A DNA stretch of 64,000 nucleotides from an uncultured Bacteroidaceae bacterium (GTDB lineage: Bacteria > CAIWAD01), in assembly GCA_964568855.1 (NCBI GenBank), contig CAZMSD010000003.1:25848-89847 (forward strand), in the 5' to 3' direction. Below are positions 48,113-60,540 of the stretch, in pieces. The stretch's first letter is position 1. Each line of letters starts with the position of its first letter. The translations under genes and the position numbers were made by a program. The notes beneath the pieces are model-generated. The model saw only the letters and a program-made list of their open reading frames with translations. It did not search any database and had not been told where the DNA came from.

Positions 48113-51100
48113 TCAGCGGCCCACCTCAACGACCGCCGCTTCTCCGCTCCCGGCGCCGCTCAAGGCGATGTCGCACACTTCCACCACGCGGTAGTAGCGC
48201 TTTTCGCCGTGCACAACCGTGTCGGACCAGACCTGGTCGGGACCGGTCACCGGCACGATGTCCACCGGCGTGGGACCGAAGCCGTAGGCGTCGGTGCTGC
48301 GATAGATGTGATACTCGTTGCCGATCTCGCCGCCGTTGATCACCAGGTCGATGGTGATGTAGTTGTTCACCGCCTCGACGGTGATATCGTGAATCCCGCA
48401 GCCGGCGCCCACGATCAGCGTGGCGGGCACCGTGATCTCGGGCTCGTCCGGATCGTTGCTGGTGATCACGATGTCGGCGTTGTATTCTCCGTCGGCCAGG
48501 CCCTCGGAATTGAACAGCACGTCGACGATCAGGGTCTCGGTCGGGTTCACGTCTCCGCCGGAGCTGCCCAGGGCGATCCAGTCGGGGCCGGAAGCCAGCT
48601 CGACGCTGTAGGCCAGCGCGTTGGGCAGCACGTTGCCCGCGCCGTACCCGTTGCTGTAGGCGTGCTCCCAGGTCTGGCCCGTGGCGACCACGCTGCCGGG
48701 GCCGAAGTCGTGCTCGACCGTGGTGGGCAGTCCACTCTCGTTTTCCGTGATGATCTGCGTTCCATCGGGCAGCACGTTGAAGTACTCGTGGCTCGCATAG
48801 TTGCCGTCGAGCGGCTCGGAGATGCCGTCCATCATCGGGTGTCCGGGATCGCTGATGTAGTTGTTGTAGTCCAGGTCCTCGTTGCCGATGGCCAGCCCGC
48901 CGGGCAGGGGCATGTCGTTGATGCGGTACGAAGACCAGGTGGCGGTGTGAATCTGCATCACGCCGCCGCCGGAAAGGAAGTCCTCGAACCAGCCCTGGTT
49001 GGCGATCATGGCATTGTAGAAGTTCTGGTCCTGCTGCGATTCGATCACGATCAGGTCGAAGGGCGTCAGGTCGATGACGCCCATGTCCGACGACCCGGTG
49101 GTAGACACCGTGACGCCCATGCCCTCGAGCAGGGGCTGATTCACGTCGTAGCCCCAGGGCAGGTTGTCGCGGAAGAGCAGCACGTTGATCGTCCGGCTGT
49201 AGGCGGGCTGCAGGTTGCGCCGCGCCGGCACCTGAGAAACGCTTTCATCGTTGGTCGCCGCGGCCGCGCCGAATTCCTGCGCAGGCCTGCGGTCGGGCAA
49301 CTCGGGCGGCTCGATCGAGGAGGCCGGGACGTCCACGTTCTCCAGGACCAGCGAGACGGAGAGCACGCTGCCCCCGTCGTTGCGGATGTTCAGCGGCACG
49401 GTCGAGGTCTGGTCGGTCTCGAGGTTCTCCACGATGCTGAGGGGATCCACGTCGATGTCGGGTTCCAGGACCACCGTGCCGGACACGATCAGCTCCGCGT
49501 TGGGATTGTCCGAATTATTGACGTGCGTCAAGGTCTCGGAGAAGGCGCCCACGGCGACGGGTGTCACGCTGACCGTGTTCTGCTCGGAGCCGATGGGGAC
49601 CACCGTGTAGCTCGTGTACTCCGGAACCAGGATTCCCGCGCTGGGAATGATGTCGGTGACGAAGAGCGTGTCCAGGCCCAGGTTGAGGATCTGGTAATCC
49701 ACGTCGTAGGAGTAGCCTAGGTAGATCGTGCCCAGGTCGATGGGATCGGGGCTGAAGCTGATGTGCGGGCCCTCGCTCAGCCAGCCGGTGGTGATCAGCA
49801 GGGTGAACTCGTCCTGCAGGGGCGAGGCGTTCTCGTGATACGAATTGTCGAAGACGTACTGGATGCCGTCGTCGCCGGCGGGGTTCTCGATGCCCACCGT
49901 GCAGCTGTTGGTGCGCCCCAGGTGGTTGATGTAGACCTTCCACTGGCCGTCGCCCGTGACGGTCGGATAGTAGGCCGGATCCTGCAGCACCACCTGCATG
50001 GTCACCTCGCCGCCGCCGCCGTAATACGGCGTGTCGTTCCACTCCACGATGAACTCGTGCGTGGCGGGATCGAGGTAGGTGTAGATCATCCCGCCGCTGG
50101 CCGGGTTGATGTCGTCCCAGTGCGGGTAGACGCAGCCGTTGGGAGTGCTGGGGTTGGGGATCGTCTGGTTGGAATATGTCGTGTAACCCGTGGTTCCCGG
50201 CGCCACGTAGCCGTTGGAACACACGGTGAGCTGGCTGTAGGTCGTACCGTAGAAGTCGTAGTCGAAACCGGTGGCGACCGTCGTATAATCGTCGTCGGAA
50301 AGAGACATGGGCGTGCCCACGCCGGAGATGCTGTTCCAGACGTAGGGCACCCCGCCCACGTCGTTGATGTCGTAGATCACGTATCCGTAGTCGTCCGGCG
50401 GGGTGGGCGAGTAGATCGGGTCGTCCGGGATGTAGAAGTCCAGCGGCGTCGTGGTGTTGGCCGTCACGAAGAAGTCCTCCACCAGCTCGGAGCCCAGGCC
50501 CGCGGCGGTGGCCAGGAAATCGTAGCTGGCGTCGCCGGGAAGATCGATGCTGTAGGAGCCGTCCGGTCCCGAATAGACCGGCGTCACGGGAGTTCCGGGC
50601 ACCGAGACCTCGGCGCCTTCCACCGTGTGCCCGTGGGTGTCGTTGACGATGCCCGCCACCGTGCCCTGGTCGGCAATCTGCAGCTGCACGTCGACCCAGG
50701 TGGTATCGTCCACCGTAACGTAGACCGCTTCCTGGTGTTCAACGTACCCGAAGGCGTTGTACTTAAGCGTGTAGGATGAATCGCCGGGCAGGGCCAGGAA
50801 ATAGTCGCCGTTGGCGTCGGCCTGGACCTGCTGGGCGCCGCCCACCACGCTGACCACGGCCTGCAGCGGGTCGCCCGTGTCGAGGTCGGTGACCGTGCCC
50901 GCCACGCGGCCGTAACCGGTCATGGCCATCGTCACGGCCGTGTAGGCGTCGATCATGCCCATGCCCGTGTTGTTGTCGTCGCCGGGGGTATCGAGATCGA
51001 TGGCCGTGTCGAAGATGATCTGCTTGATGCTGGTGACGTCCAGGCCCGGATTGGCGCTGCGCATCAGGGCCACTACGCCGGCGATGTGCGGGCAGGCCAT

Positions 51101-52381
51101 CGAGGTTCCGCTCCAGCCGCCCTGGTAGCCGCCGCCGGGCACGCTGGAGTAGATGTTCTCACCGGGCGCCGAGATGTCGGGCTTGATCATCAGGACGGGA
51201 TCGGCCGTACAGGAAGAGGGGCCCCGACTGGAGAATGAAGCCACGTAGGGATTCTCCGGGTCGTCGATGTTCAGCGCCGCCACCGCAAATGTGGTGTAGA
51301 TCGTCGCCGCCCTCGAGGCCGGCGAGCGCAGACCGCTGAAGCTCTCGTTGCCCGCGGCGAAGACCACCACTTCCCCCGCCGCCTCGCAGTTGTCGATGGC
51401 GACCCAGTAGGTCTCGTCGCACTCGGGACGATAGGCGTGGGGAATGCCCCAGGAGTTGCTGATCACGTCGGGCATGTCCTCGAGCGTACCCGGATCGCCG
51501 TCGGGATCAAGCGCCCACTCGAAGGACTGCAGGGCCAGCACGATGGTGCCCTCGATGCCCCCGCCACTGGGATGGTCGATGGTGGCGGCGGCGATCCACT
51601 CGGCGCCCCAGGCCACGCCCACCGTATCCCCGGTGCTGGGAGACATGCCGGTGATGGTGCCCATGGTATGCGTCCCGTGTGATCCCGAGTCGTAGGGGTA
51701 GGTCTGGCTGAGTACGGGATCGTAGAAGCACTCGGCCGCCGGGGCATGGTTGCCGCGCCAGCGGTCCGTCAGGGCTGTGTGCGGTCCGTCAACTCCCGTG
51801 TCGATGTTGCAGACCAGGGTGCCGGTTCCATTGATGCCCAGTTCGTACCAGACCTGGGGAGCGTTGATCACGGGCAGGCCGTTGCCCAGGGTGCGACTGT
51901 CGCGACCGGCTTCACCTTCCTTCGGGGTAGCGATCTCCGGTTCGATCAGCTCGATGGGATAGTTGGGATACAGGTCGCCGGTGTCGCCGCGGGCGGCCAG
52001 TTCCTCGATCACTTCCACCGTGGCGTTCACGTAGATCATGTTGGCCACGTGGAAGCTGCGCAGGTCGCGGACCTCCCCGCTCTCCTCGTAGAGTTCGAGC
52101 AGGGCCAGGACATCCTGCTGGCTCTCGGCGGCCAGCTCGCGCAGCTCGGTAACCACGATTTCGTGGCGTTGCTGCAGGCTGACTCTCTGGGCCCGAAGGG
52201 CTTCGTCCACCTGGCCCGCCGGGTACTGCTGGTCCATCATGACCAGGGCGTCGATGAACTCGCCCGGTCCCAGGTCCCTGAGCTGTTCCGCGAGATTGTC
52301 CGAAATGCGCCCTCCCAGGGCCGTCCCGCTCACAAGCAGGGTCGCGCAGACAGCGAACAGCAGATTCATTCTCTTTCTCAT
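48113..52381 (-). CDS. Very large secreted subtilisin-family (S8) serine protease with multiple beta-sandwich/carboxypeptidase-regulatory-like domains.
   Basis: The signal peptide is MRKRMNLLFAVCATLLVSGTALG. An I9-like propeptide follows. The S8 catalytic triad blocks are NIDTGVD, SHGTHTMGTITG and GTSMACPHIAGVVALM. About 900 aa of C-terminal beta-rich repeats follow. No T9SS, LPXTG or other sorting tail is recognised. Confidence 0.85.
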   Translation of the reverse strand: MRKRMNLLFAVCATLLVSGTALGGRISDNLAEQLRDLGPGEFIDALVMMDQQYPAGQVDEALRAQRVSLQQRHEIVVTELRELAAESQQDVLALLELYEESGEVRDLRSFHVANMIYVNATVEVIEELAARGDTGDLYPNYPIELIEPEIATPKEGEAGRDSRTLGNGLPVINAPQVWYELGINGTGTLVCNIDTGVDGPHTALTDRWRGNHAPAAECFYDPVLSQTYPYDSGSHGTHTMGTITGMSPSTGDTVGVAWGAEWIAAATIDHPSGGGIEGTIVLALQSFEWALDPDGDPGTLEDMPDVISNSWGIPHAYRPECDETYWVAIDNCEAAGEVVVFAAGNESFSGLRSPASRAATIYTTFAVAALNIDDPENPYVASFSSRGPSSCTADPVLMIKPDISAPGENIYSSVPGGGYQGGWSGTSMACPHIAGVVALMRSANPGLDVTSIKQIIFDTAIDLDTPGDDNNTGMGMIDAYTAVTMAMTGYGRVAGTVTDLDTGDPLQAVVSVVGGAQQVQADANGDYFLALPGDSSYTLKYNAFGYVEHQEAVYVTVDDTTWVDVQLQIADQGTVAGIVNDTHGHTVEGAEVSVPGTPVTPVYSGPDGSYSIDLPGDASYDFLATAAGLGSELVEDFFVTANTTTPLDFYIPDDPIYSPTPPDDYGYVIYDINDVGGVPYVWNSISGVGTPMSLSDDDYTTVATGFDYDFYGTTYSQLTVCSNGYVAPGTTGYTTYSNQTIPNPSTPNGCVYPHWDDINPASGGMIYTYLDPATHEFIVEWNDTPYYGGGGEVTMQVVLQDPAYYPTVTGDGQWKVYINHLGRTNSCTVGIENPAGDDGIQYVFDNSYHENASPLQDEFTLLITTGWLSEGPHISFSPDPIDLGTIYLGYSYDVDYQILNLGLDTLFVTDIIPSAGILVPEYTSYTVVPIGSEQNTVSVTPVAVGAFSETLTHVNNSDNPNAELIVSGTVVLEPDIDVDPLSIVENLETDQTSTVPLNIRNDGGSVLSVSLVLENVDVPASSIEPPELPDRRPAQEFGAAAATNDESVSQVPARRNLQPAYSRTINVLLFRDNLPWGYDVNQPLLEGMGVTVSTTGSSDMGVIDLTPFDLIVIESQQDQNFYNAMIANQGWFEDFLSGGGVMQIHTATWSSYRINDMPLPGGLAIGNEDLDYNNYISDPGHPMMDGISEPLDGNYASHEYFNVLPDGTQIITENESGLPTTVEHDFGPGSVVATGQTWEHAYSNGYGAGNVLPNALAYSVELASGPDWIALGSSGGDVNPTETLIVDVLFNSEGLADGEYNADIVITSNDPDEPEITVPATLIVGAGCGIHDITVEAVNNYITIDLVINGGEIGNEYHIYRSTDAYGFGPTPVDIVPVTGPDQVWSDTVVHGEKRYYRVVEVCDIALSGAGSGEAAVVEVGR

Positions 52382-52799
52382 GCCGTGCTTCCTTTCGGCT
52401 TTATCCATGCTGGGTGATCTGTATCAGTTTTATAGGCATCTCGGCGAGACGGGAGGTTGCGTGCCGCCTGTCGAGTATCGTTTGCAGGTTGCTGCAAGAT
52501 GCAGGAGATCCCTTTGATCCGCGTGAATACGGGGATCTGCGATTCGCTGAAAACCATGGATGCCTGGCTTCATGGTTGGAACAGTCGATTCCGGACGAAT
52601 CGACCGGATGCAGCATGAGACCTGCATTCCAGTCGAACAGAAAACGCAAGTATCGAGCCAGCCCGACCCAATATTCATCATCATTATTAACAAGATGTTG
52701 CCTGAACTGGCGTAGCTCGCGGACCTCCATCTACTGCGCAAAGTGCCGGATTTTGTGCACCTGAGGCGCTTCCACGTGACGGCCGGCGGATCAGCGGCG

Positions 52800-54080
52800 C
52801 TACTTCAGTAATTCAATCTTGCGGATCAGACCTTCCACGAGCTGCTCGGTGCCGGCATGGCCGCCCAGGTCGGGCGTGAGATCGCTCTTGTCCGCCAGGA
52901 AAAGTGTCAGCGCCGCCTGGATGCGGTCGGCCGCGGGGGACTCGCCGATATGTCGCAGCATCATGTTGGCGGAAAGGACCGTGGCCACGGGATTGGCGAT
53001 GCCCTTGCCGGCGATATCCGGCGCACTGCCGTGCACCGACTCGAACACGGCGTAATCGTCGCCGATGTTGGCGCCGGGAACCACGCCCAGTCCGCCCACC
53101 AGGCCGGCCGCCAGGTCCGAGATGATGTCGCCGTAAAGATTGCCCAGCACCACCACGTCGAATTGCTCGGGATGCATCACCATCTGCATGGCGCAGTTGT
53201 CCACGATGATCTCCTTGAGGGCGATCTCGGGATAATCGCGGGCCACGCTGCGTACGCACTTCAGGAACAACCCGTCGCTCTTCTTCATGATGTTGGCCTT
53301 GTGCACCGCGTGGACCAGGCTCCGGCCGTGAGCGCGGGCCCATTCGAAGGCCGCCCGGGCGATGCGCAAGGAAGCGGCCTCGGTGATGATCTTCAGCGAC
53401 TGGGCCACGCCGGGAGCCACGTCGTGTTCCATGCCCGCGTAGAGGTCCTCCGTGTTCTCGCGGAAAATGACCATGTTGATCGGGTGGTGGTGCAGGGTGA
53501 CGCCCAGCGATGAGCGCACCGGGCGCACGTTGGAATAGAGGTCCAGGGCTTTGCGCAGGGTCACGTTGACCGAACGGAATCCCTCTCCGATGGGCGTGGT
53601 CAGCGGCCCCTTGAGCGCCACCTTGTTGGTCCGGATGGAATCCAGGGTTTCCTCGGGCAGGGTGTTCCCGTGGGTTTTGACCGCCGCAGCCCCGGCGGGC
53701 ATGATTTCCCAGTCGATCTTCACTCCCGCCGCGCTCAGGATCTTCCTCGCAGCGCCCGTGACCTCGGGTCCGATGCCGTCACCCTGGATCAGGGTGATGC
53801 GATGTGCCGCCGGTCGCTTAGCTGTTGCCTTGTTCTTCTCCGTAGTCCGGCGAGGCTTCGAGGAGCCTCTTGCAGCGCCCGCCTTCACCGCGCCTGCCGG
53901 CGATTTCCTGACTGTGGCTTTCGTTCCTGCCCTGCCGCGCGGGACGCTGCCGGGCTTCCCTGCGGTCTTGGTCCCTTTACTGCCCGCGCTCTTCGATCCT
54001 GCGGCGCTCCCGGCACTGGTTTTCTTCGCGGCCCTGGCCGAATTCGACATTTCCGGAATCCTTCCCATCTTGGAAATCAC
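52800..54080 (-). CDS. icd: NAD-dependent isocitrate dehydrogenase (isocitrate/isopropylmalate dehydrogenase family) with a ~95-aa Lys/Ala/Gly-rich N-terminal extension.
   Basis: The catalytic core runs from ITLIQGDGIGPEV to the end. Core motifs include SVNVTLRKALDLYSNVRP, KANIMKKSDGLF and NLYGDIISD. The N-terminal region is SAGSKGTKTAGKPGSVPRGRAGTKATVRKSPAGAVKAGAARGSSKPRRTTEKNKATAKRPAA. Its GC3 is high in frame. No in-frame ATG, GTG or TTG occurs near the core start, so the fusion is read-through rather than an annotation artefact. Confidence 0.75.
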   Translation of the reverse strand: MISKMGRIPEMSNSARAAKKTSAGSAAGSKSAGSKGTKTAGKPGSVPRGRAGTKATVRKSPAGAVKAGAARGSSKPRRTTEKNKATAKRPAAHRITLIQGDGIGPEVTGAARKILSAAGVKIDWEIMPAGAAAVKTHGNTLPEETLDSIRTNKVALKGPLTTPIGEGFRSVNVTLRKALDLYSNVRPVRSSLGVTLHHHPINMVIFRENTEDLYAGMEHDVAPGVAQSLKIITEAASLRIARAAFEWARAHGRSLVHAVHKANIMKKSDGLFLKCVRSVARDYPEIALKEIIVDNCAMQMVMHPEQFDVVVLGNLYGDIISDLAAGLVGGLGVVPGANIGDDYAVFESVHGSAPDIAGKGIANPVATVLSANMMLRHIGESPAADRIQAALTLFLADKSDLTPDLGGHAGTEQLVEGLIRKIELLK

Positions 54081-54321
54081 TGTACCGATTCCCGGCGTCA
54101 GGGCCCAGACCGGACCTTCCGCCGCTTCCCCGTTTGAAACGGCCTAATTAGCCATGTTATCTCTGGAATGTCAAAGTATTTAAGGTTTAACTAACATTGT
54201 CCGGGGTGTAGTTCATCATTGCTGACCGCTTGAGAACTCCAAGTCAGGGAGCTTTTGCCTAAATTGCCGTATAGATCAACAGATCTGCATCAACAGCATC
54301 ACGTGATACAGCAGGGAGGAG

Positions 54322-55140
54322 GTGTTCATGCGCGCAAGGCTAACAATGCGCTTGGTCCTCGCGAGTCTTCTGCCCTTACTTCTGATCACCTCCTGCGAGG
54401 AGAACTCCAACAGCTTCGAGACTATCGAGCTGGAACTATGCGATCAGCCGACGGAGTCCGGTGTTTGGGAATTCGAGAATTGCGTAGAGTGGCCTCTGAA
54501 TTCGGTGGAGTCCTGCGCGGCCGCGGGCGCCCCGGAGTACGAACCGGAACAGGAGGTCCAGTTCCACTACTCGATCCAGAATCTCGATACGGTGGCCCTG
54601 ACGATTCCGATGAGCGGTACGCCGGGCGTGGAGTTCAACATTGAACAACTGGGCTGGCGCGGCGGCGGCATAGACGATTCCATCGCCTGGGAGCTGATCC
54701 TGGGGCCCCAGGATAGCTTTACGCGTTCCCTGGAAACCGTCGTGACCGATTCCACGGGTTCTCCCCCACCCGATGGCTACTACGTCTTCTCTGCGCAACT
54801 GTCCGGCTCGATCGATTCCACGACCGTCTTTCCGGTCGAATACGGCTTCATGCTCAGTTCAGCGGCCTCGGAGACGGTGCCGCAATCCTTCGACCTCTTC
54901 GTTTGCTGGCACGATGAAGACCTTGACACCTTGGTTATCTTCGTCAACCTGCCGCAATCCGGCCATCTACGGCTGAGCATCTCGCTGGTGGGCGGCGGAT
55001 TCACCGAAGTCCTGATGGACGGGATGAGTGAAGCGGGCACGCATGTCTACGGCTGCTCCGTGCTTGGTCTGGCCGGCGGCACCTATGCCGTCGTCCTGGA
55101 CGCGGACGCATATCGCCGGGAGCTGCGTTTCGAGTTGTAG
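54322..55140 (+). CDS. Hypothetical lipoprotein.
   Basis: The lipobox is LLPLLLITSC. The protein is 272 aa and acidic. No recognisable domain is present. Local GC is lower than the window average. Confidence 0.5.
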   Translation: MFMRARLTMRLVLASLLPLLLITSCEENSNSFETIELELCDQPTESGVWEFENCVEWPLNSVESCAAAGAPEYEPEQEVQFHYSIQNLDTVALTIPMSGTPGVEFNIEQLGWRGGGIDDSIAWELILGPQDSFTRSLETVVTDSTGSPPPDGYYVFSAQLSGSIDSTTVFPVEYGFMLSSAASETVPQSFDLFVCWHDEDLDTLVIFVNLPQSGHLRLSISLVGGGFTEVLMDGMSEAGTHVYGCSVLGLAGGTYAVVLDADAYRRELRFEL

Positions 55141-55214
55141 TCAAGGAAACCGGGGACCCGCCGCAGCGAACCCCCGGTTGGATTCCGTGATACAAATGCC
55201 GCCCGGCGCGGGAC

Positions 55215-56021
55215 TCACTCGCCGCCGGCGCCCGCCCGGACCTCCAGCTCGAGCATGCCGGAATCCCCTGACCCGTCTTCATTGCGCCTGATCAGGATCC
55301 GGGCCGACTCCGCGTCCACGCCCTGAGCCTCCAGCTGCTCCCTGACCATTTCGCGGATCTGCTCTTCGGACATCTCGCCGGTGACGGAGAGATCGAGATT
55401 CAGGTCCTGCAACCGGCCCGCACCGGCTGATCCGGCCTCTCCGTCGAAGAGCTTGATCTCCAGCAGGCCCGCCTCGCCCGCACCGGCGGAGGATTCATCT
55501 TCAGGCACTTCCACTTCGAGTTGCAGGCCCTCCGCTCCGGCGCCCCGGGAAACGGTCACCGCGCCCTCGAAACCGCTCGCCGCGAGCCGCTCGTTCAGCA
55601 GGCGGTTGATCTCCTCGTCGTTCAGTCCGCCGACATCCAGCGAGACGCTGAACAGGCGGTCCACCATCATGTCGTACAGGGTGCCCTCCGCGGCTTCGAC
55701 CAGGGTCCTGGCGTCGAAGGCTCGCAGTCCCTCCAGGCGCTCGAGATCGCCCAGGTCGCTCCGCTCCGCGTTGAGCAGGCGGGCGGTGATCTCATGCAGG
55801 GGCGGCTCCCCCTCCGTGGTGCTGATGTTCAGGGCGCTCAAGGTCCAGGGCCCGCCGCGCAATTCCTCGATCGCCGGCTCCAGTTCGCCCGCCACCAGCA
55901 GGTTGACTTCCGTTCCCGTCTCGCGCTCGTAGCCCATCGGCACCGTGCAGGCGGCCACCAGGGCCAGCAGGCAGGCCGCCGCCGCGTATTTCAGGACTTT
56001 CCAGGTCTTCGGTTCGAACAT
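55215..56021 (-). CDS. Acidic lipoprotein or membrane-anchored protein downstream of the ECF sigma factor; possible anti-sigma or co-regulated partner.
   Basis: The preferred start MFEPKTWKVLKYAAAACLLALVAAC gives a lipoprotein signal. Internal AGAG-containing repeats are present. The ORF track start (56207) would overlap the sigma gene by 53 nt. No anti-sigma zinc-finger motif is seen. Confidence 0.4.
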   Translation of the reverse strand: MFEPKTWKVLKYAAAACLLALVAACTVPMGYERETGTEVNLLVAGELEPAIEELRGGPWTLSALNISTTEGEPPLHEITARLLNAERSDLGDLERLEGLRAFDARTLVEAAEGTLYDMMVDRLFSVSLDVGGLNDEEINRLLNERLAASGFEGAVTVSRGAGAEGLQLEVEVPEDESSAGAGEAGLLEIKLFDGEAGSAGAGRLQDLNLDLSVTGEMSEEQIREMVREQLEAQGVDAESARILIRRNEDGSGDSGMLELEVRAGAGGE

Positions 56022-56154
56022 CGCTGCAACTCCATTTCGTGTCACACCGGGCCCCTTCCGGACCTCGGCTTCCACCCGCCGGCGCATTTCATCGAGATCC
56101 GGCCCCGTGCCCGTCGCGCCCGGATCCTCGAAGCAGTCCCTCAGCGGGTCCCGG

Positions 56155-56823
56155 TCAGCACCGCTGTCCGCCGAGTCCCTCGTCCCGGACGATTTCTTCG
56201 ATGTCATGATCCAGCTCCTTTTCCCTGTGCCGGCCGATCACCGCGAGCGGCAGCCCGCCTTCCAGCAGTCCGCGCAGCTCGCGGCGCGCCCGGCTCAACC
56301 GCGACTTGGAGGCGCTGAGGCTCTCGCCCAGCATTTCGGAGATCTCAGGCAGGCTGAAACCGGCCACGTAATACAAGAGCACGATCCGTCTGCGGGCCGG
56401 ATTAAGCCTGGCCAGCGCGGCCCTTAAGTGCATCCGGCGCAGGTTCATCTCGTGCGGATCACCCGCGCAATCGGCGCTTTCGAAGCGTCCTTTGAACCCG
56501 GGTCCGGCGGCCTCCCCGGCGCCCGCCGTTGGCCTTCCGTCCTCTCCGCGGCGAGGAGCGTCGAGCGAGCGGAAGCGGCGCCAGAATTCCCGCTTGCGCT
56601 GCCTCCCGGCCTCGTTGGCCAGGATGCGGAAGATCCAGGCCCGGAATTTCCCGCGGTCCCTGAGCCGTTTGAAGGAACACAGGCCGATCAGCAGGCTCTC
56701 CTGCAGCAGGTCCTCCCAGCGTTCCGGCAGCGTGTGGCGCGCGAAGGCGCACAGGCGGCCGTAGAGGGGTTCGACCTCCCGCCAGAACTGCTCATCGTTT
56801 CGCGACGTCGGCTGATGCATCAT
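56155..56823 (-). CDS. ECF-type RNA polymerase sigma-70 family factor.
   Basis: Region 2 is ESLLIGLCSFKRL...FRAWIFRILANE. Region 4 is RRIVLLYYVAGFSLPEISEMLGESLSASKSRLSRARREL. The protein is 222 aa. Confidence 0.8.
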   Translation of the reverse strand: MMHQPTSRNDEQFWREVEPLYGRLCAFARHTLPERWEDLLQESLLIGLCSFKRLRDRGKFRAWIFRILANEAGRQRKREFWRRFRSLDAPRRGEDGRPTAGAGEAAGPGFKGRFESADCAGDPHEMNLRRMHLRAALARLNPARRRIVLLYYVAGFSLPEISEMLGESLSASKSRLSRARRELRGLLEGGLPLAVIGRHREKELDHDIEEIVRDEGLGGQRC

Positions 56824-57000
56824 CGGATCGCGGCCTCCAGTCTGGTAGCAAGAGACTCGAGGGTCGAAAAAGGTCGCAGGCGGAGAGTATTTTCAGAATC
56901 GCCCGCGGTCCTCCCCGGGCGGATCGGGGACAGGGATCTTCATTGCTGGCAGCTTGAAGCTCGAACCGAACCCGCGGCCCGGCGGCCCGGAGAGACCGCT

Positions 57001-57261
57001 TCAGGGTGCTTCATTCCCGGATGATCCCCCCTTCGGCGCGTCGTCCGCGGAGGTATCACCGGTCGCTGCGTCCTTGGGAGATTCTTTCGCCGGCTCGTCC
57101 TCACCGCGCTCGCCCTTGGCGGGCTGCTCATCGAAGAGCATGCGCAGGGCGGGCGTCTTCAGGTCGTCGAACTGCCCGCTCCGTGCGGAGCGGATGAAGG
57201 CGACCAGCATTCCCGCGGCGATCAGGACGGCCAGGGGCAGGACGAGGTAGATCACGGACAT
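57001..57261 (-). CDS. ccoS: cbb3-type cytochrome oxidase maturation protein CcoS/FixS, with an acidic C-terminal tail.
   Basis: MSVIYLVLPLAVLIAAGMLVAFIRSARSGQFDDLKTPALRMLFDE matches the CcoS consensus. The protein is 86 aa with a ~35-aa Glu/Asp/Lys-rich tail. Its start overlaps the ccoI stop. Confidence 0.7.
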   Translation of the reverse strand: MSVIYLVLPLAVLIAAGMLVAFIRSARSGQFDDLKTPALRMLFDEQPAKGERGEDEPAKESPKDAATGDTSADDAPKGGSSGNEAP

Positions 57262-59759
57262 GTTCGGTCCTTCACGAGAAAGGTCCTGGACTTGTAGCTG
57301 CTGGTAACCACGGTGATGGAACTCAACGGCATCAGCAGGGCCGCCGCGAGGGGATGGATCATCCCCGCCACGGCCAGGCCGGCGCCCACGATATTGTAGC
57401 ACAGAGAGAAGACAAGGTTCCTGCGTATCACGCCCACGGTCCGCCGCGAGCCCTCGACCAGGTCCGCCACTGCGAAGATCCCGGGCTCGGTGAGGAAGAC
57501 GTCCGCCGCCGCCAGGCTGGCCTCGGCGCCGCCGTGAACGCTGATTCCCACGGTGGCCGCTGATAGTGCCGCCGCGTCGTTGACCCCGTCACCGACCATC
57601 AGCACCGTTTCCCGGCGGGCTGCCTCCTCGACTACGGCCAGTTTCTCCTCGGGCAGGACCCCGCCGCGGCAGGCCGCCGGATCCAGCCCCAGCGCATCGG
57701 CCACGCGGGCGACCACCCGGGGGTGATCGCCGGAAATCATCTCCAGCTTCCAGCCGAGACTCTCGAGCCTGCGCAGGGTGGACTCGGCGTCGGGGCGCAG
57801 GGGATCGCCCATCCCGGCGACGCCGCAGACCCTCCCGTCCACCGCCACAACCACGGGGCTCAACGCCTCGTCCACCATGGACTCCACCGCCCGGGCGTTC
57901 TCCCCGTCCAGCGGACCGAGTTCGCGCGCCGCGTACGCGGGCGATCCGACCAGCACCCTCCGTCCCCGCACGAGTCCCTGAACTCCTCCGCCCATGACCT
58001 GCCGGAAATCCTCGGGCGGTTCGGCGTCTTCCCTCGTCTCGCCCGCGGCGAAATGTCTCACGAAGGCCCGCGCCACGGGGTGGTTCGAGTGGCGCTCAAG
58101 CTCCGCCGCCAGCCGCCCGGTCTCTTCCCGGCCCTCCCAGCGGACCAGGGCCATCCGGCCCTCCGTCAGGGTCCCGGTCTTGTCCAGCAGCAGGCGTCCC
58201 GGCCGGCTCAGCGCCTCCACCACGTCGCCGCCCTTGATCAACAGGCCCGCGCGGGCCGCCCGGCCCACGGCCACGCTGACCGCCAGGGGAGTGGCCAGGC
58301 CCAGAGCGCAGGGACAGGTGACGATCAGCAGGGCTACCGTGTGATCCACCGCCCGCGACGGGTCCAGCCAGGCCCAGAGCAGCCCGGTGAAGGCCGCCAG
58401 CCCCAGCACGATCGCCACGAACCATCCGGCCAGCCGGTCCGCCATCCGGACCAGGGGCGCCTTGCGCCGGGCGGCCTCTTCCACGATGCGCATCAGGCGC
58501 CCAACGCGGGTGTTCTCGCCCGTCCCGCGGACCCGCAGCAGCAGCGGGGCGCCGAGGTTCAGCGTGCCGGCGTGCACCTCGTCTCCCGGTGACACGTCCA
58601 CGGGCCGCGACTCGCCGGTGATCAGCGAGAGGTCGAGCGTCGAACGTCCCTCCACGATCTCGCCGTCCGCGGGGACGGAGCCCTCCGCCGGAACCTCCAC
58701 CAGATCCTCCGGGAGCAGGGCCTCCACAGGCACTTCCCGCACCCGGCGCGGGATTCCGTTCTCCCCGTCGCTTCTTTCCTCTACGCGCCTGGCCGAGGAC
58801 GGGGCGAGCGAATAGAGCAGTTCGGCGGCGTCCGAGGCTTCGCGCTTCCGCCGGCGCTCGAGCCAGCGGCCGACCAGCAGCAGGAAGATCAGCATGGTCA
58901 CCGAGTCGAAGTAGATCTCCCCGGAGGAACGGACCGTGTTGACCAGGCCGGCGACGAAGCCGACGCCGATGCCCAGCGAGATGGGCAGATCCATGTGCAG
59001 GGTCCGCGTGCGCAGGGCGCCCCAGGCCCCGCGGAAGAACAGGCCCGCCGAGTAGAGTACCGCGGGCAGGGCGATCAACAGGCTGGACCAGTGAAAGTAG
59101 CGCTCGTGCCGGAGGTCCATGCCCCCGGGAATGCTCCCGTAGAGGGCGATGGCGATCAGCATCACGTTGCCCGCCGATGCGGCGGCCACGGCGATGCGGA
59201 TCAGCAGCCGGCGATCCTCGCGGCGCCTGATCTCGCGGATTCTGACTCCCCGGTAGGGATGGACGGGATAGCCCAGCGAATCGATGAAGCGGGCGATGTT
59301 CGAGAGCGGCGTGTCAGCGGGATTCCAGGTGATACTCGCCACCGATCGTCCGATGTCCAGCCGGGCCTCGTGAACGCCCGGCACGGCCAGGGGCACTTTC
59401 TCCACCAGCCAGACGCAGGCGGCGCAGTGCACGCCTTCGAGGTAGAGCTCGACCCGCCGCAGGTCCCCGCCTGCGGGCGGGCAATAGAGTTCCATGAAGG
59501 CCGGGTCGTCGTACTCCTCGTAGCTGCGCCCGCCTCCGCCGGCGCTTCGCGGTTCCTCGCCCACCGTCCGCGCGACCTCGTAATACTGCTCGAGCCCGTG
59601 GCGGTGAATCACCTCGTAGACGGTCCGGCAGCCGTTGCAGCAGAACTGCTCCCCGGCGTCCTCCACCACCAGGCCCCGCGGGACCGGCAGTCCGCAGTGA
59701 GTGCAGTGGACGGATTCCGCCCCCCGCTCAGGGTTTCGCGCCGTGTTCACTGGCGCCAC
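57252..59759 (-). CDS. ccoI: Copper-translocating P1B-type ATPase CcoI/FixI.
   Basis: The N-terminus has CTHCGLPV and FCCNGCRTVYEV, then an HMA motif GVHCAACV. Eight TM helices are predicted. Motifs include CPC (VTCPCALGLA), DKTGTLT, MVGDGVNDAAAL and TGES. It is embedded in the cco cluster. Confidence 0.9.
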   Translation of the reverse strand: MAPVNTARNPERGAESVHCTHCGLPVPRGLVVEDAGEQFCCNGCRTVYEVIHRHGLEQYYEVARTVGEEPRSAGGGGRSYEEYDDPAFMELYCPPAGGDLRRVELYLEGVHCAACVWLVEKVPLAVPGVHEARLDIGRSVASITWNPADTPLSNIARFIDSLGYPVHPYRGVRIREIRRREDRRLLIRIAVAAASAGNVMLIAIALYGSIPGGMDLRHERYFHWSSLLIALPAVLYSAGLFFRGAWGALRTRTLHMDLPISLGIGVGFVAGLVNTVRSSGEIYFDSVTMLIFLLLVGRWLERRRKREASDAAELLYSLAPSSARRVEERSDGENGIPRRVREVPVEALLPEDLVEVPAEGSVPADGEIVEGRSTLDLSLITGESRPVDVSPGDEVHAGTLNLGAPLLLRVRGTGENTRVGRLMRIVEEAARRKAPLVRMADRLAGWFVAIVLGLAAFTGLLWAWLDPSRAVDHTVALLIVTCPCALGLATPLAVSVAVGRAARAGLLIKGGDVVEALSRPGRLLLDKTGTLTEGRMALVRWEGREETGRLAAELERHSNHPVARAFVRHFAAGETREDAEPPEDFRQVMGGGVQGLVRGRRVLVGSPAYAARELGPLDGENARAVESMVDEALSPVVVAVDGRVCGVAGMGDPLRPDAESTLRRLESLGWKLEMISGDHPRVVARVADALGLDPAACRGGVLPEEKLAVVEEAARRETVLMVGDGVNDAAALSAATVGISVHGGAEASLAAADVFLTEPGIFAVADLVEGSRRTVGVIRRNLVFSLCYNIVGAGLAVAGMIHPLAAALLMPLSSITVVTSSYKSRTFLVKDRTCP

Positions 59760-60540
59760 TTTCCTCCTCCTGCTCCTCTTTGCAGCAGGGTAGTTCCCAG
59801 GGATTCTGCGTCTCCGTCCCCCGATCCAGGGCCACCGCCGATTTCAGCCGGGCGAAGCGCTCGACGGGAATCGCCGCCCGGTCGATCACGGTGTAGGCGC
59901 CGATCGCGATCAGGACCAGGGCGCTGACCAGCGGCAGGTGCCGGCGCAGCGGTCCCGCCAGGAACTGCACGCCGAAGCCCAGTCCGAGCATCACGGGCAC
60001 CGTCCCCAGCCAGAAGGCGGCCATCACCAGGGAGCCCAGGGCCGGGTGCCCGGTGCCGGCTGCGGTGATGGCGAAGGCGTAGAGCCAGCCGCAGGGCAGC
60101 AGGGCGGAAAGCAGGCCCAGCGTCAGGGCGCGTATCACGGGCGGTTTCCCTCCGATCCCTCCCAGGAGGCGACCCAGCAGTCGCTGGATCCCTGAGGGCA
60201 GCCGGGCGCCGATCTGCAGTCCACGGATCTGCAGCAGCATCATCAGGCCCCAGAGAATCATCAGGCCGCCGGCCACCAGCGCGCCCCCGCGCTGCAGCCC
60301 GGCCGCCGCTCCGGCCAGGTCGAGGGCCGCGCCCAGCGCCCCGGCGGCGGCTCCCAGCAGGCCGTAGGCCACCAGCCTTCCGCCGTTGTAGGCCGTGTGA
60401 GACGCGATCCGCGAGAGGCCCGCGCTCTGGTCGGCGCCGGCGTAGAAAGCCACGAATCCGCCGCACATGCCCGCGCAGTGCAGGCTGCCCAGCAGGCTGG
60501 CGGCCAGAACGGCTCCGTACAGCGCGATCACGACGGTCAC
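59728..60540 (-). CDS. DsbD_2/UreH-like polytopic membrane protein with an HCxxMCGG motif, inserted between fixH and ccoI.
   Basis: 270 aa with ~6 TM helices. It contains LGSLHCAGMCGGFVAFY plus a second Cys pair. The family is DsbD_2, a cytochrome c biogenesis / metal transporter-like family. Confidence 0.55.
   Translation of the reverse strand: MTVVIALYGAVLAASLLGSLHCAGMCGGFVAFYAGADQSAGLSRIASHTAYNGGRLVAYGLLGAAAGALGAALDLAGAAAGLQRGGALVAGGLMILWGLMMLLQIRGLQIGARLPSGIQRLLGRLLGGIGGKPPVIRALTLGLLSALLPCGWLYAFAITAAGTGHPALGSLVMAAFWLGTVPVMLGLGFGVQFLAGPLRRHLPLVSALVLIAIGAYTVIDRAAIPVERFARLKSAVALDRGTETQNPWELPCCKEEQEEESGASEHGAKP

Follow-up and report, generated by a model that had tools for sequence, protein, structure and literature searches.

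In bacteria, disordered basic tails have been described chiefly on nucleoid proteins, polymerase factors and proteins associated with granules. The locus described here raises the question of whether such a tail is also carried by an isocitrate dehydrogenase (IDH), an enzyme of the TCA cycle, and if so, where its translation starts, how it arose and what it may do. The original prediction had placed an IDH core behind a same-frame segment rich in Lys, Ala and Gly, on the minus strand of the 64,000 nucleotides that were analysed here as a whole, in the following simply called the window. This reading was borne out by the open reading frame, which is present at 52800..54080 and counts 426 codons from a GTG at 54080, and by the Pfam match of its core (Table 1). 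We regard it as likely that the gene is real and intact and encodes a homodimeric NAD-type IDH, started most probably at the ATG at 54050 and carrying an 82-residue disordered polycationic tail.

Table 1. Features of the IDH locus, in window coordinates.
Feature	Position	Strand	Details
Best gene model, 416-aa IDH with N-terminal tail	52800..54050	-	ORF and Pfam Iso_dh, E=4.9e-106
Tail, residues 1-82, predicted disordered polycation	53805..54050	-	composition, shuffles, AlphaFold2
Catalytic core, residues 83-416, NAD-type beta-decarboxylating dehydrogenase	52803..53804	-	pI 6.4, net charge -3
Stop codon of the IDH gene	52800-52802	-	
Upstream in-frame candidate start GTG	54080-54078	-	+10 residues; Shine-Dalgarno energy -5.4 kcal/mol
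Upstream in-frame candidate start ATG	54068-54066	-	+6 residues; Shine-Dalgarno energy -3.4 kcal/mol
Shine-Dalgarno-like GGGAAGGA	54059..54066	-	ends 8 nt ahead of ATG 54050
GTG (Val55), sole in-frame canonical start within the tail	53886..53888	-	Shine-Dalgarno energy -5.7 kcal/mol
Perfect TTGACA, -35-like	54169..54174	-	divergent intergenic region, upstream of every candidate start; weak evidence
Terminator-like hairpin followed by T-run	52651..52673	-	about 130 nt past the stop codon

The catalytic core

The core (residues 83-416, counted from the ATG at 54050) matches the PF00180 (Iso_dh) profile with 355.3 bits against a cut-off of 27, covering residues 95-416 of the 426-residue ORF and profile positions 2-346 of 348. 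Among solved structures, the chain nearest to it is 6lky_A (E=1.4e-110) from a putative NAD-dependent IDH; residues 83-416 match this chain from end to end, its residue 2 being aligned to His83. The core shares about 84% identity with Calditrichota enzymes that are 340-341 aa long, with a range of 75-84% among Calditrichota, and retains all residues that are invariant in the family, including S342-A343-P344-D345-I346-A347-G348. We take the Asp-Ile pair of this GSAPDIAG motif to be the determinant of the NAD-type cofactor; NADP-using enzymes have Lys-Tyr at the Asp-Ile position. The core has a GC3 of 0.86 and a codon log-likelihood ratio of +0.55.

In the case of NCBIfam, the two best-scoring models were NF006529 (414.9 against a cut-off of 510) and TIGR00175 (403.5 against 432.4). 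Both scores lie below the equivalog thresholds, and the protein was therefore named a probable NAD-type IDH; judged from the sequence, isocitrate is the probable substrate. The known systems closest to the core are the homodimeric bacterial NAD-type IDHs, represented by PDB 6lky and by P0013 of Caldithrix abyssi, which share its fold span, its invariant residues and the GSAPDIAG motif, together with the mitochondrial IDH3-alpha-like branch described by TIGR00175. The difference lies in front of the core. These enzymes have 335-345 aa with only 1-10 residues ahead of the first strand, whereas the IDH of the window has 82 residues preceding its first beta-strand (HRITLIQGDGIGPE).

Composition, relatives and origin of the tail

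The 80 residues between Met1 and Ala82 consist of 18 Ala, 13 Lys, 11 Ser, 11 Gly, 8 Arg, 8 Thr, 5 Pro, 3 Val, 2 Asn and 1 Glu, giving the tail a pI of 12.0 and a net charge of about +19.5. Lys thus accounts for 16% of the tail against 2.4% in the other genes of the window, and the ratio K/(K+R) is 0.62 against 0.23. AlphaFold2 predicted no secondary structure in the tail, with pLDDT values of 43-52 for residues 1-70. Neither a Sec or Tat signal nor an encapsulation peptide could be recognized in the tail, as only 3 of the 80 residues are hydrophobic, no helix is predicted and an RRxFLK-type motif is missing.

Dinucleotide shuffles were used to see what goes beyond chance. The number of in-frame Lys residues is higher than expected (13 against 6.1±1.7, P=1.5e-4), and this holds both for the proximal half (P=0.008) and for the distal half (P=0.006), the latter also being devoid of Asp and Glu (0 against 4.4 expected, P=0.004). 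The open frame itself is not significant, as the coding strand contains 6.7% T and 26% of the shuffles remain open, and neither is the net charge (P=0.13 against shuffles); the base composition of the tail by itself makes an open and positive frame fairly likely. Where ORFs in GC-rich DNA are spurious, or gene calls over-extended, it is Arg and not Lys in which they are rich.

The codon statistics were less clear. The tail had originally been described as having a coding-like GC3, and this holds in so far as its GC3 is 0.72 while the flanking intergenic GC is 0.49-0.55; overall GC is 0.64-0.68 in tail and core and falls to 0.49 immediately upstream of the starts. It does not hold in comparison with the genes of the window, where GC3 is 0.884±0.056 and only 1.2% of 81-codon windows are equally low, and the synonymous-codon score of the tail lies within the lowest 0.6% of windows. 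Codon statistics fail to pick out the tail frame, and because of the low GC3 the tail looks young.

Searches for homologues of the tail were negative. When the tail with 15 core residues was compared to an index of 5.8 billion proteins, 51 candidates shared words and none of them scored. A phmmer search with the tail and 40 core residues in 1.84 billion representatives gave 996 matches, all driven by the core and none homologous in the tail, in a library that holds one representative per 50% cluster, so that tails on non-representative members are invisible; where an alignment ran on into the tail, the partner was an over-extended, Arg-rich gene call still holding a canonical Met. Pfam and NCBIfam gave no family at E<=10 for the tail. 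The literature search brought up neither a basic tail on a bacterial IDH nor a basic disordered tail on any central metabolic enzyme. Of the other ORFs of 60 aa or more in the 64-kb window, none reaches 6 Lys in any 30 residues or carries a similar tail, and the window gives no sign of a genome-wide habit of basic tails.

The expectation that such a fusion to a TCA-cycle enzyme is unusual was confirmed by the comparison of relatives. The segment ahead of the GDG motif typically measures 13-14 residues in the 126 nearest homologues and in 80 GTDB species loci; in the IDH of the window it measures 89. The tail DNA is common to seven assemblies including the window, of which the other six are 99.96-100% identical and free of gaps, and the long tail is carried by this one near-clonal population only (divergence <=0.04%). 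As to whether related genomes have the extension, the answer is twofold: the long tail is absent from the nearest relatives at 79-84% identity, and close relatives (P0003-P0019 and P0109) have no insertion at all, while three related GC-rich Calditrichota lineages from a neighbouring clade of the tree (the P0095 cluster, P0096 and P0277) have insertions of 12-20 residues at the same N-terminal site, against about 72 in the IDH of the window. In all of these the insertion lies between Mxx[AT]KK and H/Y-R-x-T-L/M and is basic, polar and of low complexity. The GC3 of these short tails is 0.93-0.96 in the P0095 cluster and P0096, to which this comparison is limited, against the lower value given above for the window, and beyond the initial AKKT(S) no homology between the short tails and the long one could be demonstrated.

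The P0095 cluster is the best-sampled tailed lineage. Its 28 tail codons are free of indels, while the upstream non-coding indels are not multiples of three, and over these 28 codons 6 differences are synonymous and 9 non-synonymous, compared to 111 and 14 over 327 codons of the core. From this codon and indel pattern it follows that the P0095 tail is translated and evolves fast, about 7 times faster than the core, with its composition kept.

Regarding the origin of the long tail, the N-terminus of the clade has Mxx[AT]KK with H[RQ]xTL immediately behind it, and the tail looks like a young in-frame expansion inside this short Lys-rich N-terminus. An alternative origin, in which an ancestral start was lost (ATG to ACA at Thr74) and an upstream ATG recruited, was set aside because the beginning of the product, MSNSARAAKK, resembles the start of the clade; the short forms can be aligned in more than one way, which leaves some room for this alternative. 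A fusion with an upstream histone-like gene had also been raised originally. It was rejected, as the 1.5 kb preceding IDH in 49 related loci contain no Lys-rich ORF, and the DNA of the tail does not resemble the upstream regions found in relatives. A tandem-repeat origin is likewise unsupported, since neither Tandem Repeats Finder nor a repeat search detected repeats.

An expansion of this kind may be translated without any specific function, as a young and near-neutral low-complexity product of slippage or insertion in a tolerant linker, which may later be lost. This is a possibility to be taken seriously, though we do not favour it. It is in line with the restriction of the long tail to a single near-clonal population, with the close relatives lacking any insertion, with the fast evolution of tails in the related clade and with the absence of homologues and motifs, and the poor codon adaptation of the tail would suggest recency. 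What it explains less well is the composition: the tail strongly favours Lys over Arg and keeps acidic residues out, in a genome with 2.4% K, 8% R and 13% D+E, and each of the same-site insertions of the four lineages is basic and polar. Moreover, the P0095 tails are fully codon-adapted at constant length, which argues for some selection on composition.

Start codon and annotation

Three candidate starts lie upstream, the GTG at 54080 and the ATGs at 54068 and 54050. The 416-aa model starting at the last of these is annotated as P0001 alike in the NCBI, ENA and Logan sources, and the 422-aa form (P0121) is a JGI gene call. For the ATG at 54050, the duplex of GGGAAGGA with the anti-Shine-Dalgarno sequence has an energy of -6.4 kcal/mol, the best among the candidate starts, and the majority of the window genes have sites of the GGAG/AGGA type. 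Furthermore, the product's MSNSARAAKK resembles the N-termini of relatives, which read MSKAKK, MSETKK, MAAAAKK, MAVTKK and MPTAKK. Translation most probably starts at this ATG, which is the best supported codon on sequence grounds, and the tail is then probably 82 residues long rather than the 95 first proposed.

As for the flanks, the TTGACA element was read directly from the sequence, is absent from the promoter scan and is followed only by a weak -10 (CTAATT, 17 nt on). Terminator-like sites are not more numerous than expected from shuffles.

Closer to the core, the original prediction saw no alternative start between the two parts. This proved correct for the 66 nt upstream of the core GDG, where the sequence contains no ATG, GTG or TTG in any frame, and incorrect for the tail as a whole, which contains the in-frame GTG at 53888. 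A canonical start codon is missing at the usual IDH position next to the core; only ATC or CTG would be available there, neither of them with a Shine-Dalgarno-like site. Because these 66 nt are free of starts, some of the basic tail must be translated.

The GTG at 53888 lies 35 codons upstream of the GDG motif, and translation from it would give the shortest model, in which His83 is preceded by 28 basic tail residues and the distal 162 nt become a purine-rich 5' leader. We consider this improbable. This GTG is the sole in-frame canonical start in the tail and has a Shine-Dalgarno energy close to that of the ATG at 54050, the resulting tail would be similar in length to the 18-26 residues before the core in relatives, and the coding statistics of the tail are weak. 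Its energy is nevertheless near background, as 22% of random sites score -6 or better, and in the distal part, which would then be untranslated, Lys is likewise enriched in frame, acidic residues are absent and GC is coding-like (0.68 against 0.49 in the intergenic region). In addition, MSNSARAAKK fits the Mxx[AT]KK N-termini of the clade. The leader RNA shows no structure signal (folding z=-0.17), and its lone Rfam match (E=0.8) is a chance one; a structured RNA leader or riboswitch was rejected.

Far less probable still is an artefact, either an assembly indel joining a small histone-like gene to icd, as the original prediction had considered, or an over-extended call with its true start near the core. 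Over-extended IDH calls are common in GC-rich genomes, and the T-poor composition leaves the frame open by chance in a good part of the shuffles, as described above. Such calls, however, keep the M[AST]H[RK]VTLIP start and are Arg-rich, whereas the present tail lacks that Met and is Lys-rich, and the possible near-core codons have no Shine-Dalgarno-like site. Since no start exists in any frame near the GDG, no indel could restore a normal start. The gap-free match across six other assemblies from different samples makes a frameshift or assembly indel very unlikely, and the relatives have no small Lys-rich ORF upstream of IDH.

Finally, two JGI annotations (L083 and L092) shorten the IDH to 300-307 aa and call an antisense ORF over the tail (plus strand, about 53551-54147), but that this is the real gene is hardly credible, given that the two stop-free antisense frames are open only because the sense strand is T-poor and the antisense thus lacks the A needed by every stop codon, that the antisense ORF has no Pfam match and an atypical GC pattern, that it runs across the first strand and the GDGIGPE loop, both indispensable to IDH, and that a 300-aa IDH would miss residues invariant across the family. 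In public data, four gene models (416, 422, 300 and 307 aa) thus exist for the same DNA, the two shortest each paired with a spurious antisense gene, which makes for an unstable annotation.

Known basic tails and a possible role

The tail had been likened to those of H1, AlgP and Hc2. AlgP is enriched in lysine, alanine and proline and has 25 perfect KPAA repeats (PMC9239181), and the KPAA tails of AlgP and PhaF (PMC9239181, PMC12818456), the PAKKA tail of mycobacterial Ku (PMC3553676) and chlamydial Hc2 (PMC2848022) have roles in binding DNA, polyphosphate granules or RNA. Like the IDH tail, these are disordered, cationic and Ala/Lys-rich segments on a folded domain. Several differences stand against this likeness. 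Firstly, they are tandem repeats, while the IDH tail is non-repetitive and contains no KPAA, PAKKA, [ST][AT]AKK or SPKK motif and AKK only once. Secondly, the Lys/Ala/Pro-dominated disordered profile of the H1-like repeat tails (AlgP, PhaF, Ku, HupB and DdbA) is matched in part, in that disorder is predicted and Ala amounts to 22%, but Lys amounts to only 16% and Pro to 6%, with 27% Gly plus Ser. Thirdly, the tails of AlgP, PhaF and Ku are C-terminal, and the net charges of the PhaF and AlgP tails are +35 to +55 against about +20. Membership in the chlamydial Hc1/Hc2 group finds no support either, as the tail has neither repeats nor a match to these or other Pfam and NCBIfam families at the cut-off used. 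Judged by its sequence features, the tail does not belong with those of the H1/AlgP/Hc2 kind, and the proposed likeness survives in charge and disorder alone.

An architectural parallel is DdbA of Streptomyces, whose DksA-like domain bears at its N-terminus an H1-like extension of 93 residues that confers DNA binding and condensation (PMC3643593). Here too a basic extension of some 90 residues, specific to the lineage, precedes a conserved folded domain. DdbA differs in having five (S/T)(A/T)AKK pentapeptide repeats and similarity to the H1 and HupS tails, neither of which is seen in the IDH tail, and its partner domain is a transcription factor instead of a metabolic enzyme. Within the same branch of IDHs, the yeast mitochondrial NAD-IDH is reported to bind mitochondrial mRNAs at their 5' leaders. 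This nucleic-acid-binding side activity is not known to involve a basic tail, and by analogy the yeast case offers a lead that moonlighting may be compatible with the IDH fold.

The best overall explanation, which we hold with moderate confidence, is a real tailed IDH whose tail arose by expansion and may form polyanion-binding arms. As for the mechanism, electrostatic binding of polyanions is the likeliest role of the tail, and a tether of this kind is a tentative proposal. The tail would shift the net charge of the subunit from about -3 to about +17 and, going by the general architecture of such enzymes, probably points outward from the large domain and away from where the dimer is joined. 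The dimer would then present two flexible cationic arms that could bind DNA, RNA or polyphosphate electrostatically, and such binding might tether or co-condense the IDH while leaving the active site untouched. A further step, for which we see a smaller chance, is that the tail makes this TCA-cycle enzyme nucleoid-, RNA- or polyphosphate-associated, possibly condensate-forming or moonlighting, and that the repeated basic insertions reflect selection for placing the IDH on a polyanion.

In conclusion, the tail is a rare, young and lineage-specific addition to an otherwise ordinary IDH of an uncultured Calditrichota-like bacterium. If it is neutral, it would be a clean example of a disordered N-terminal linker growing sevenfold with an essential enzyme left unharmed. 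If it is functional, it would represent a simple natural case in which a TCA-cycle enzyme is brought to nucleic acid or polyphosphate, or is condensed by charge.

The isocitrate dehydrogenase core and its basic N-terminal tail

The isocitrate dehydrogenase (IDH) gene of the window encodes a basic tail in the same frame as a catalytic core. This fusion, claimed in the original prediction, is borne out by an open reading frame of 426 codons with a Pfam Iso_dh match at its residues 95-416 (E=4.9e-106), and by six matching assemblies free of gaps. In the following, residues of this protein (P0001) are counted from ATG 54050, i.e. in the 416-aa form. Among solved structures, 6lky_A, a putative NAD-dependent IDH of 340 aa, comes closest (E=1.4e-110); His83 aligns with its residue 2, thus the core was delimited as residues 83-416. 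All columns invariant among 47 family members are present, including GDGIGPE and GSAPDIAG, and the Asp-Ile pair within the latter is the established NAD-type cofactor determinant. The top NCBIfam models are NAD-IDH equivalogs, both scoring below their curated cut-offs (414.9 and 403.5 versus 510 and 432.4). The core is an ordinary Iso_dh superfamily member and probably an NAD-IDH.

The tail comprises the 82 residues ahead of this core. Between Met1 and Ala82 lie 80 residues (A18, K13, S11, G11, R8, T8, P5, V3, N2, E1). The tail has a pI of 12.0 and a net charge at pH 7 of +19.5, as compared to 6.4 and -3.1 for the core and 9.8 and +16.7 for the whole protein. It contains 16% Lys, 9.9% Arg and 1.2% Asp+Glu, versus 2.4%, 8.0% and 13% in the other genes of the window. 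These genes are very poor in Lys and have a GC3 of about 0.88; the IDH core has 4.8% Lys, twice their average. In the AlphaFold2 model (47-sequence alignment), residues 1-70 show pLDDT values of 43-52 and no secondary structure, and the first strand is formed by residues 83-88. RNA folding of the tail region was not unusual (z=-0.17) and an Rfam scan of it gave one chance match only (E=0.8). A signal or encapsulation peptide was ruled out, as the tail has neither a hydrophobic core nor a predicted helix. The neighbouring genes have no obvious link to IDH, which looks monocistronic.

Features of the IDH locus (window coordinates)
Feature	Position	Strand	Remarks
IDH open reading frame	GTG 54080 to stop 52800-52802	-	426 codons
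In-frame ATGs shortly after GTG 54080	54068, 54050	-	
Catalytic core	52803-53804	-	residues 83-416, from 6lky_A alignment
Divergent intergenic region	54081-54321		separates IDH from a 272-aa gene lacking Pfam matches; AT-rich, GC 0.49
Perfect TTGACA	54174-54169	-	-10 only weak
S8 peptidase	48113-52408	-	1431 aa, CarboxypepD_reg and DUF1573 domains; downstream, same orientation as IDH
Upstream genes	54322-60050		272 and 330 aa without Pfam matches, ECF-type sigma factor, FixS/CcoS, heavy-metal P-type ATPase, DsbD_2 protein
Antisense open reading frame over tail and start of core	53551-54147 (L083 2556-3002; L092 565-1011)	+	148-aa JGI gene call

Translation of the tail and its start codon

ATG, GTG and TTG are absent in all frames from the 66 nt preceding the GDG codons, so a normal start could not be restored by a single indel; translation has to begin upstream of the core. 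Tail and core have a GC of 0.64-0.68, whereas the divergent intergenic region has 0.49. Lys occurs 13 times in frame, versus 6.1+-1.7 in dinucleotide shuffles (P=1.5e-4), and this enrichment is found separately upstream (P=0.006) and downstream (P=0.008) of an internal GTG at 53888. The part upstream of this GTG has no Asp or Glu versus 4.4 expected (P=0.004). Spurious frames in the GC-rich DNA of the window are Arg-rich, never Lys-rich. Given the base composition, neither the openness of the frame (P=0.26) nor the positive charge (P=0.13) is significant. The coding-like GC3 claimed for the tail is borne out in part only: GC3 is 0.72 versus 0.884+-0.056 in the genes of the window and varies from 0.5 to 0.9 along the tail with no trend. 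Its synonymous-codon score falls in the lowest 0.6% of windows, and a codon model shows no preference for the tail frame. We read the tail as a translated yet evolutionarily young segment.

Most genes in the window are preceded by GGAG/AGGA-type Shine-Dalgarno sites. The best energy belongs to ATG 54050, where GGGAAGGA ends 8 nt upstream (-6.4 kcal/mol, with -6 or better at 22% of random sites), followed by GTG 53888 (-5.7), GTG 54080 (-5.4) and ATG 54068 (-3.4). Translation probably starts at ATG 54050 or at either of the two starts just upstream; from ATG 54050 the tail has 82 residues instead of the proposed 95. A start at the internal GTG is improbable and would still leave 28 residues of basic tail before His83; its presence qualifies the claim that no alternative start separates the two parts, which is correct for the 66 nt before GDG.

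GC-rich genomes often contain over-extended IDH calls, and the tail could be read as one of them. Such calls are, however, Arg/Pro/Ser-rich and retain a canonical M[AST]H[RK]VTLIP, whereas the tail is Lys-rich and lacks such a Met. These over-extensions are widespread, spanning 30-200 residues in many IDH cluster representatives from GC-rich genomes (many of P0127-P0276).

The window is matched at 99.96-100% identity with zero gaps by six other assemblies (ENA ERZ23498658; Logan SRR8062346; JGI 3300009008, 3300009431, 3300013118 and 3300013119), and all SNPs among them fall outside the tail, which makes an assembly indel very unlikely. Gene models for the same DNA differ: 416 aa (NCBI, ENA, Logan), 422 aa (JGI) and 300/307 aa (JGI), the last being paired with the 148-aa antisense call at L083 and L092, loci from two samples. 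The truncated forms were rejected as they would miss family-invariant residues, and the antisense gene as a shadow frame, kept open solely by the low T content (6.7%) of the sense strand, and without a Pfam match.

Rarity and origin of the tail

The closest proteins belong to Calditrichota, among them entries from Caldithrix, Calditrichaceae and Calditrichia MAGs. Besides P0001, the best matches are 79-84% identical in the core and 340-341 aa long, with N-termini such as MSKAKKHQVTLIQGDG. The segment before GDG usually has 13-14 residues among the 126 nearest homologues, sometimes 17-19; longer segments of 25 and 33 residues occur in P0096 and the P0095 cluster, respectively, versus 89 or 95 in the IDH of the window. 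No comparable in-frame extension was found in 80 GTDB species loci. Together these counts mark the tail as an extreme outlier, and it is restricted to one near-clonal population. We found no description of such a fusion on an IDH in the literature. The fusion is real, reproducible and, as originally proposed, unusual for IDH.

Two other architectures were observed. P0002, a homologue outside the window (712 aa), has two tandem Iso_dh domains with a Ser/Thr/Gly/Ala linker (…GATGSATGSSTGSATGSAT…) between them. GDGIGPE is retained in the first domain and degenerate (GDLLGRD) in the second, so that P0002 resembles a natural fusion of a catalytic with a regulatory-type NAD-IDH subunit. In the case of P0215, P0169, P0149 and P0218, IDH N-terminal fragments from other lineages, a similar extension starts MSExxVSAATTSRxPxSxT with no canonical Met adjoining the core. 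These fragments may represent another conserved extension that is unrelated, or else some conserved feature of a different frame.

Neither tandem nor dispersed repeats were found in the tail, and it gave no Pfam or NCBIfam match at E<=10 and no homologues in two large protein searches. An origin by fusion with a histone-like gene, or by a frameshift joining the two, is unsupported, since the six assemblies are gap-free, no Lys-rich frame lies upstream of IDH in relatives and their upstream regions show no similarity to the tail DNA. Members of this GC-rich clade include short forms (P0003, MSKAKK-HQVTL; P0109, MSETKK-HRATL) and forms with insertions (P0096, MPTAKK-[12]-HRVTL; P0277, MAAAAKK-[17]-YRVTM; P0095, MAVTKK-[20]-HRATL; window, MSNSARAAKK-[72]-HRITL). 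MAFFT aligned AAKKTSA of the window protein with xxKKTSA of the intermediate forms and placed the short forms ambiguously. This comparison suggests that the region separating the KK motif from the first strand expanded in frame, and that ATG 54050 is the ancestral start. In a midpoint-rooted, not robust neighbour-joining tree of the core, the P0095/P0096 clade is sister to a clade in which the window protein groups with P0003-P0019, whose tails are short; one gain followed by losses would be about as parsimonious as several independent gains.

In the P0095 cluster, the 28 tail codons have a GC3 of 0.93-0.96 and no indels, while indels of lengths not divisible by three occur in the non-coding DNA directly upstream. 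Over the 28 codons of the tail, 6 synonymous and 9 non-synonymous differences were counted, versus 111 and 14 over 327 codons of the core. The P0095-cluster tails are therefore translated and fast-evolving, with length and K/S/A/T composition maintained, as is usual for a disordered region under selection for composition.

Possible role of the tail

The folded, NAD-type core is probably dimeric, and the dimer would carry two flexible arms of about +20 each, without hydrophobic or aromatic residues (the composition lists three Val). From the general features of the IDH fold, the N-terminus is probably part of the large domain, remote from both the dimer interface and the active-site cleft, so the arms should leave catalysis unblocked. 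By their charge they could bind polyanions (DNA, RNA, polyphosphate), and two arms per dimer could bridge these and promote co-condensation. By analogy with known tails, we propose this mechanism tentatively. About equally likely is a near-neutral young expansion, in keeping with the young appearance of the tail, its lack of homologues and its restriction to one near-clonal population.

DdbA owes DNA binding and condensation to a 93-residue N-terminal H1-like extension (PMC3643593), the spacing of polyphosphate granules depends on the KPAA tail of AlgP (PMC9239181), and PhaF binds RNA via a disordered region (PMC12818456). The tail resembles H1-like tails only in charge and disorder. These are defined by tandem K-containing repeats, whereas the IDH tail has none, is much less Lys/Pro-rich and is more Gly/Ser-rich. 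Contrary to the original prediction, it should not be classed as H1-, AlgP- or Hc2-like.

Overall, the IDH of the window is a conserved enzyme that gained a polycationic disordered tail. The P0095-cluster tails support the view, short of proof of function for the 82-residue version, that a basic N-terminal arm on IDH is tolerated in this group, where it is probably useful.
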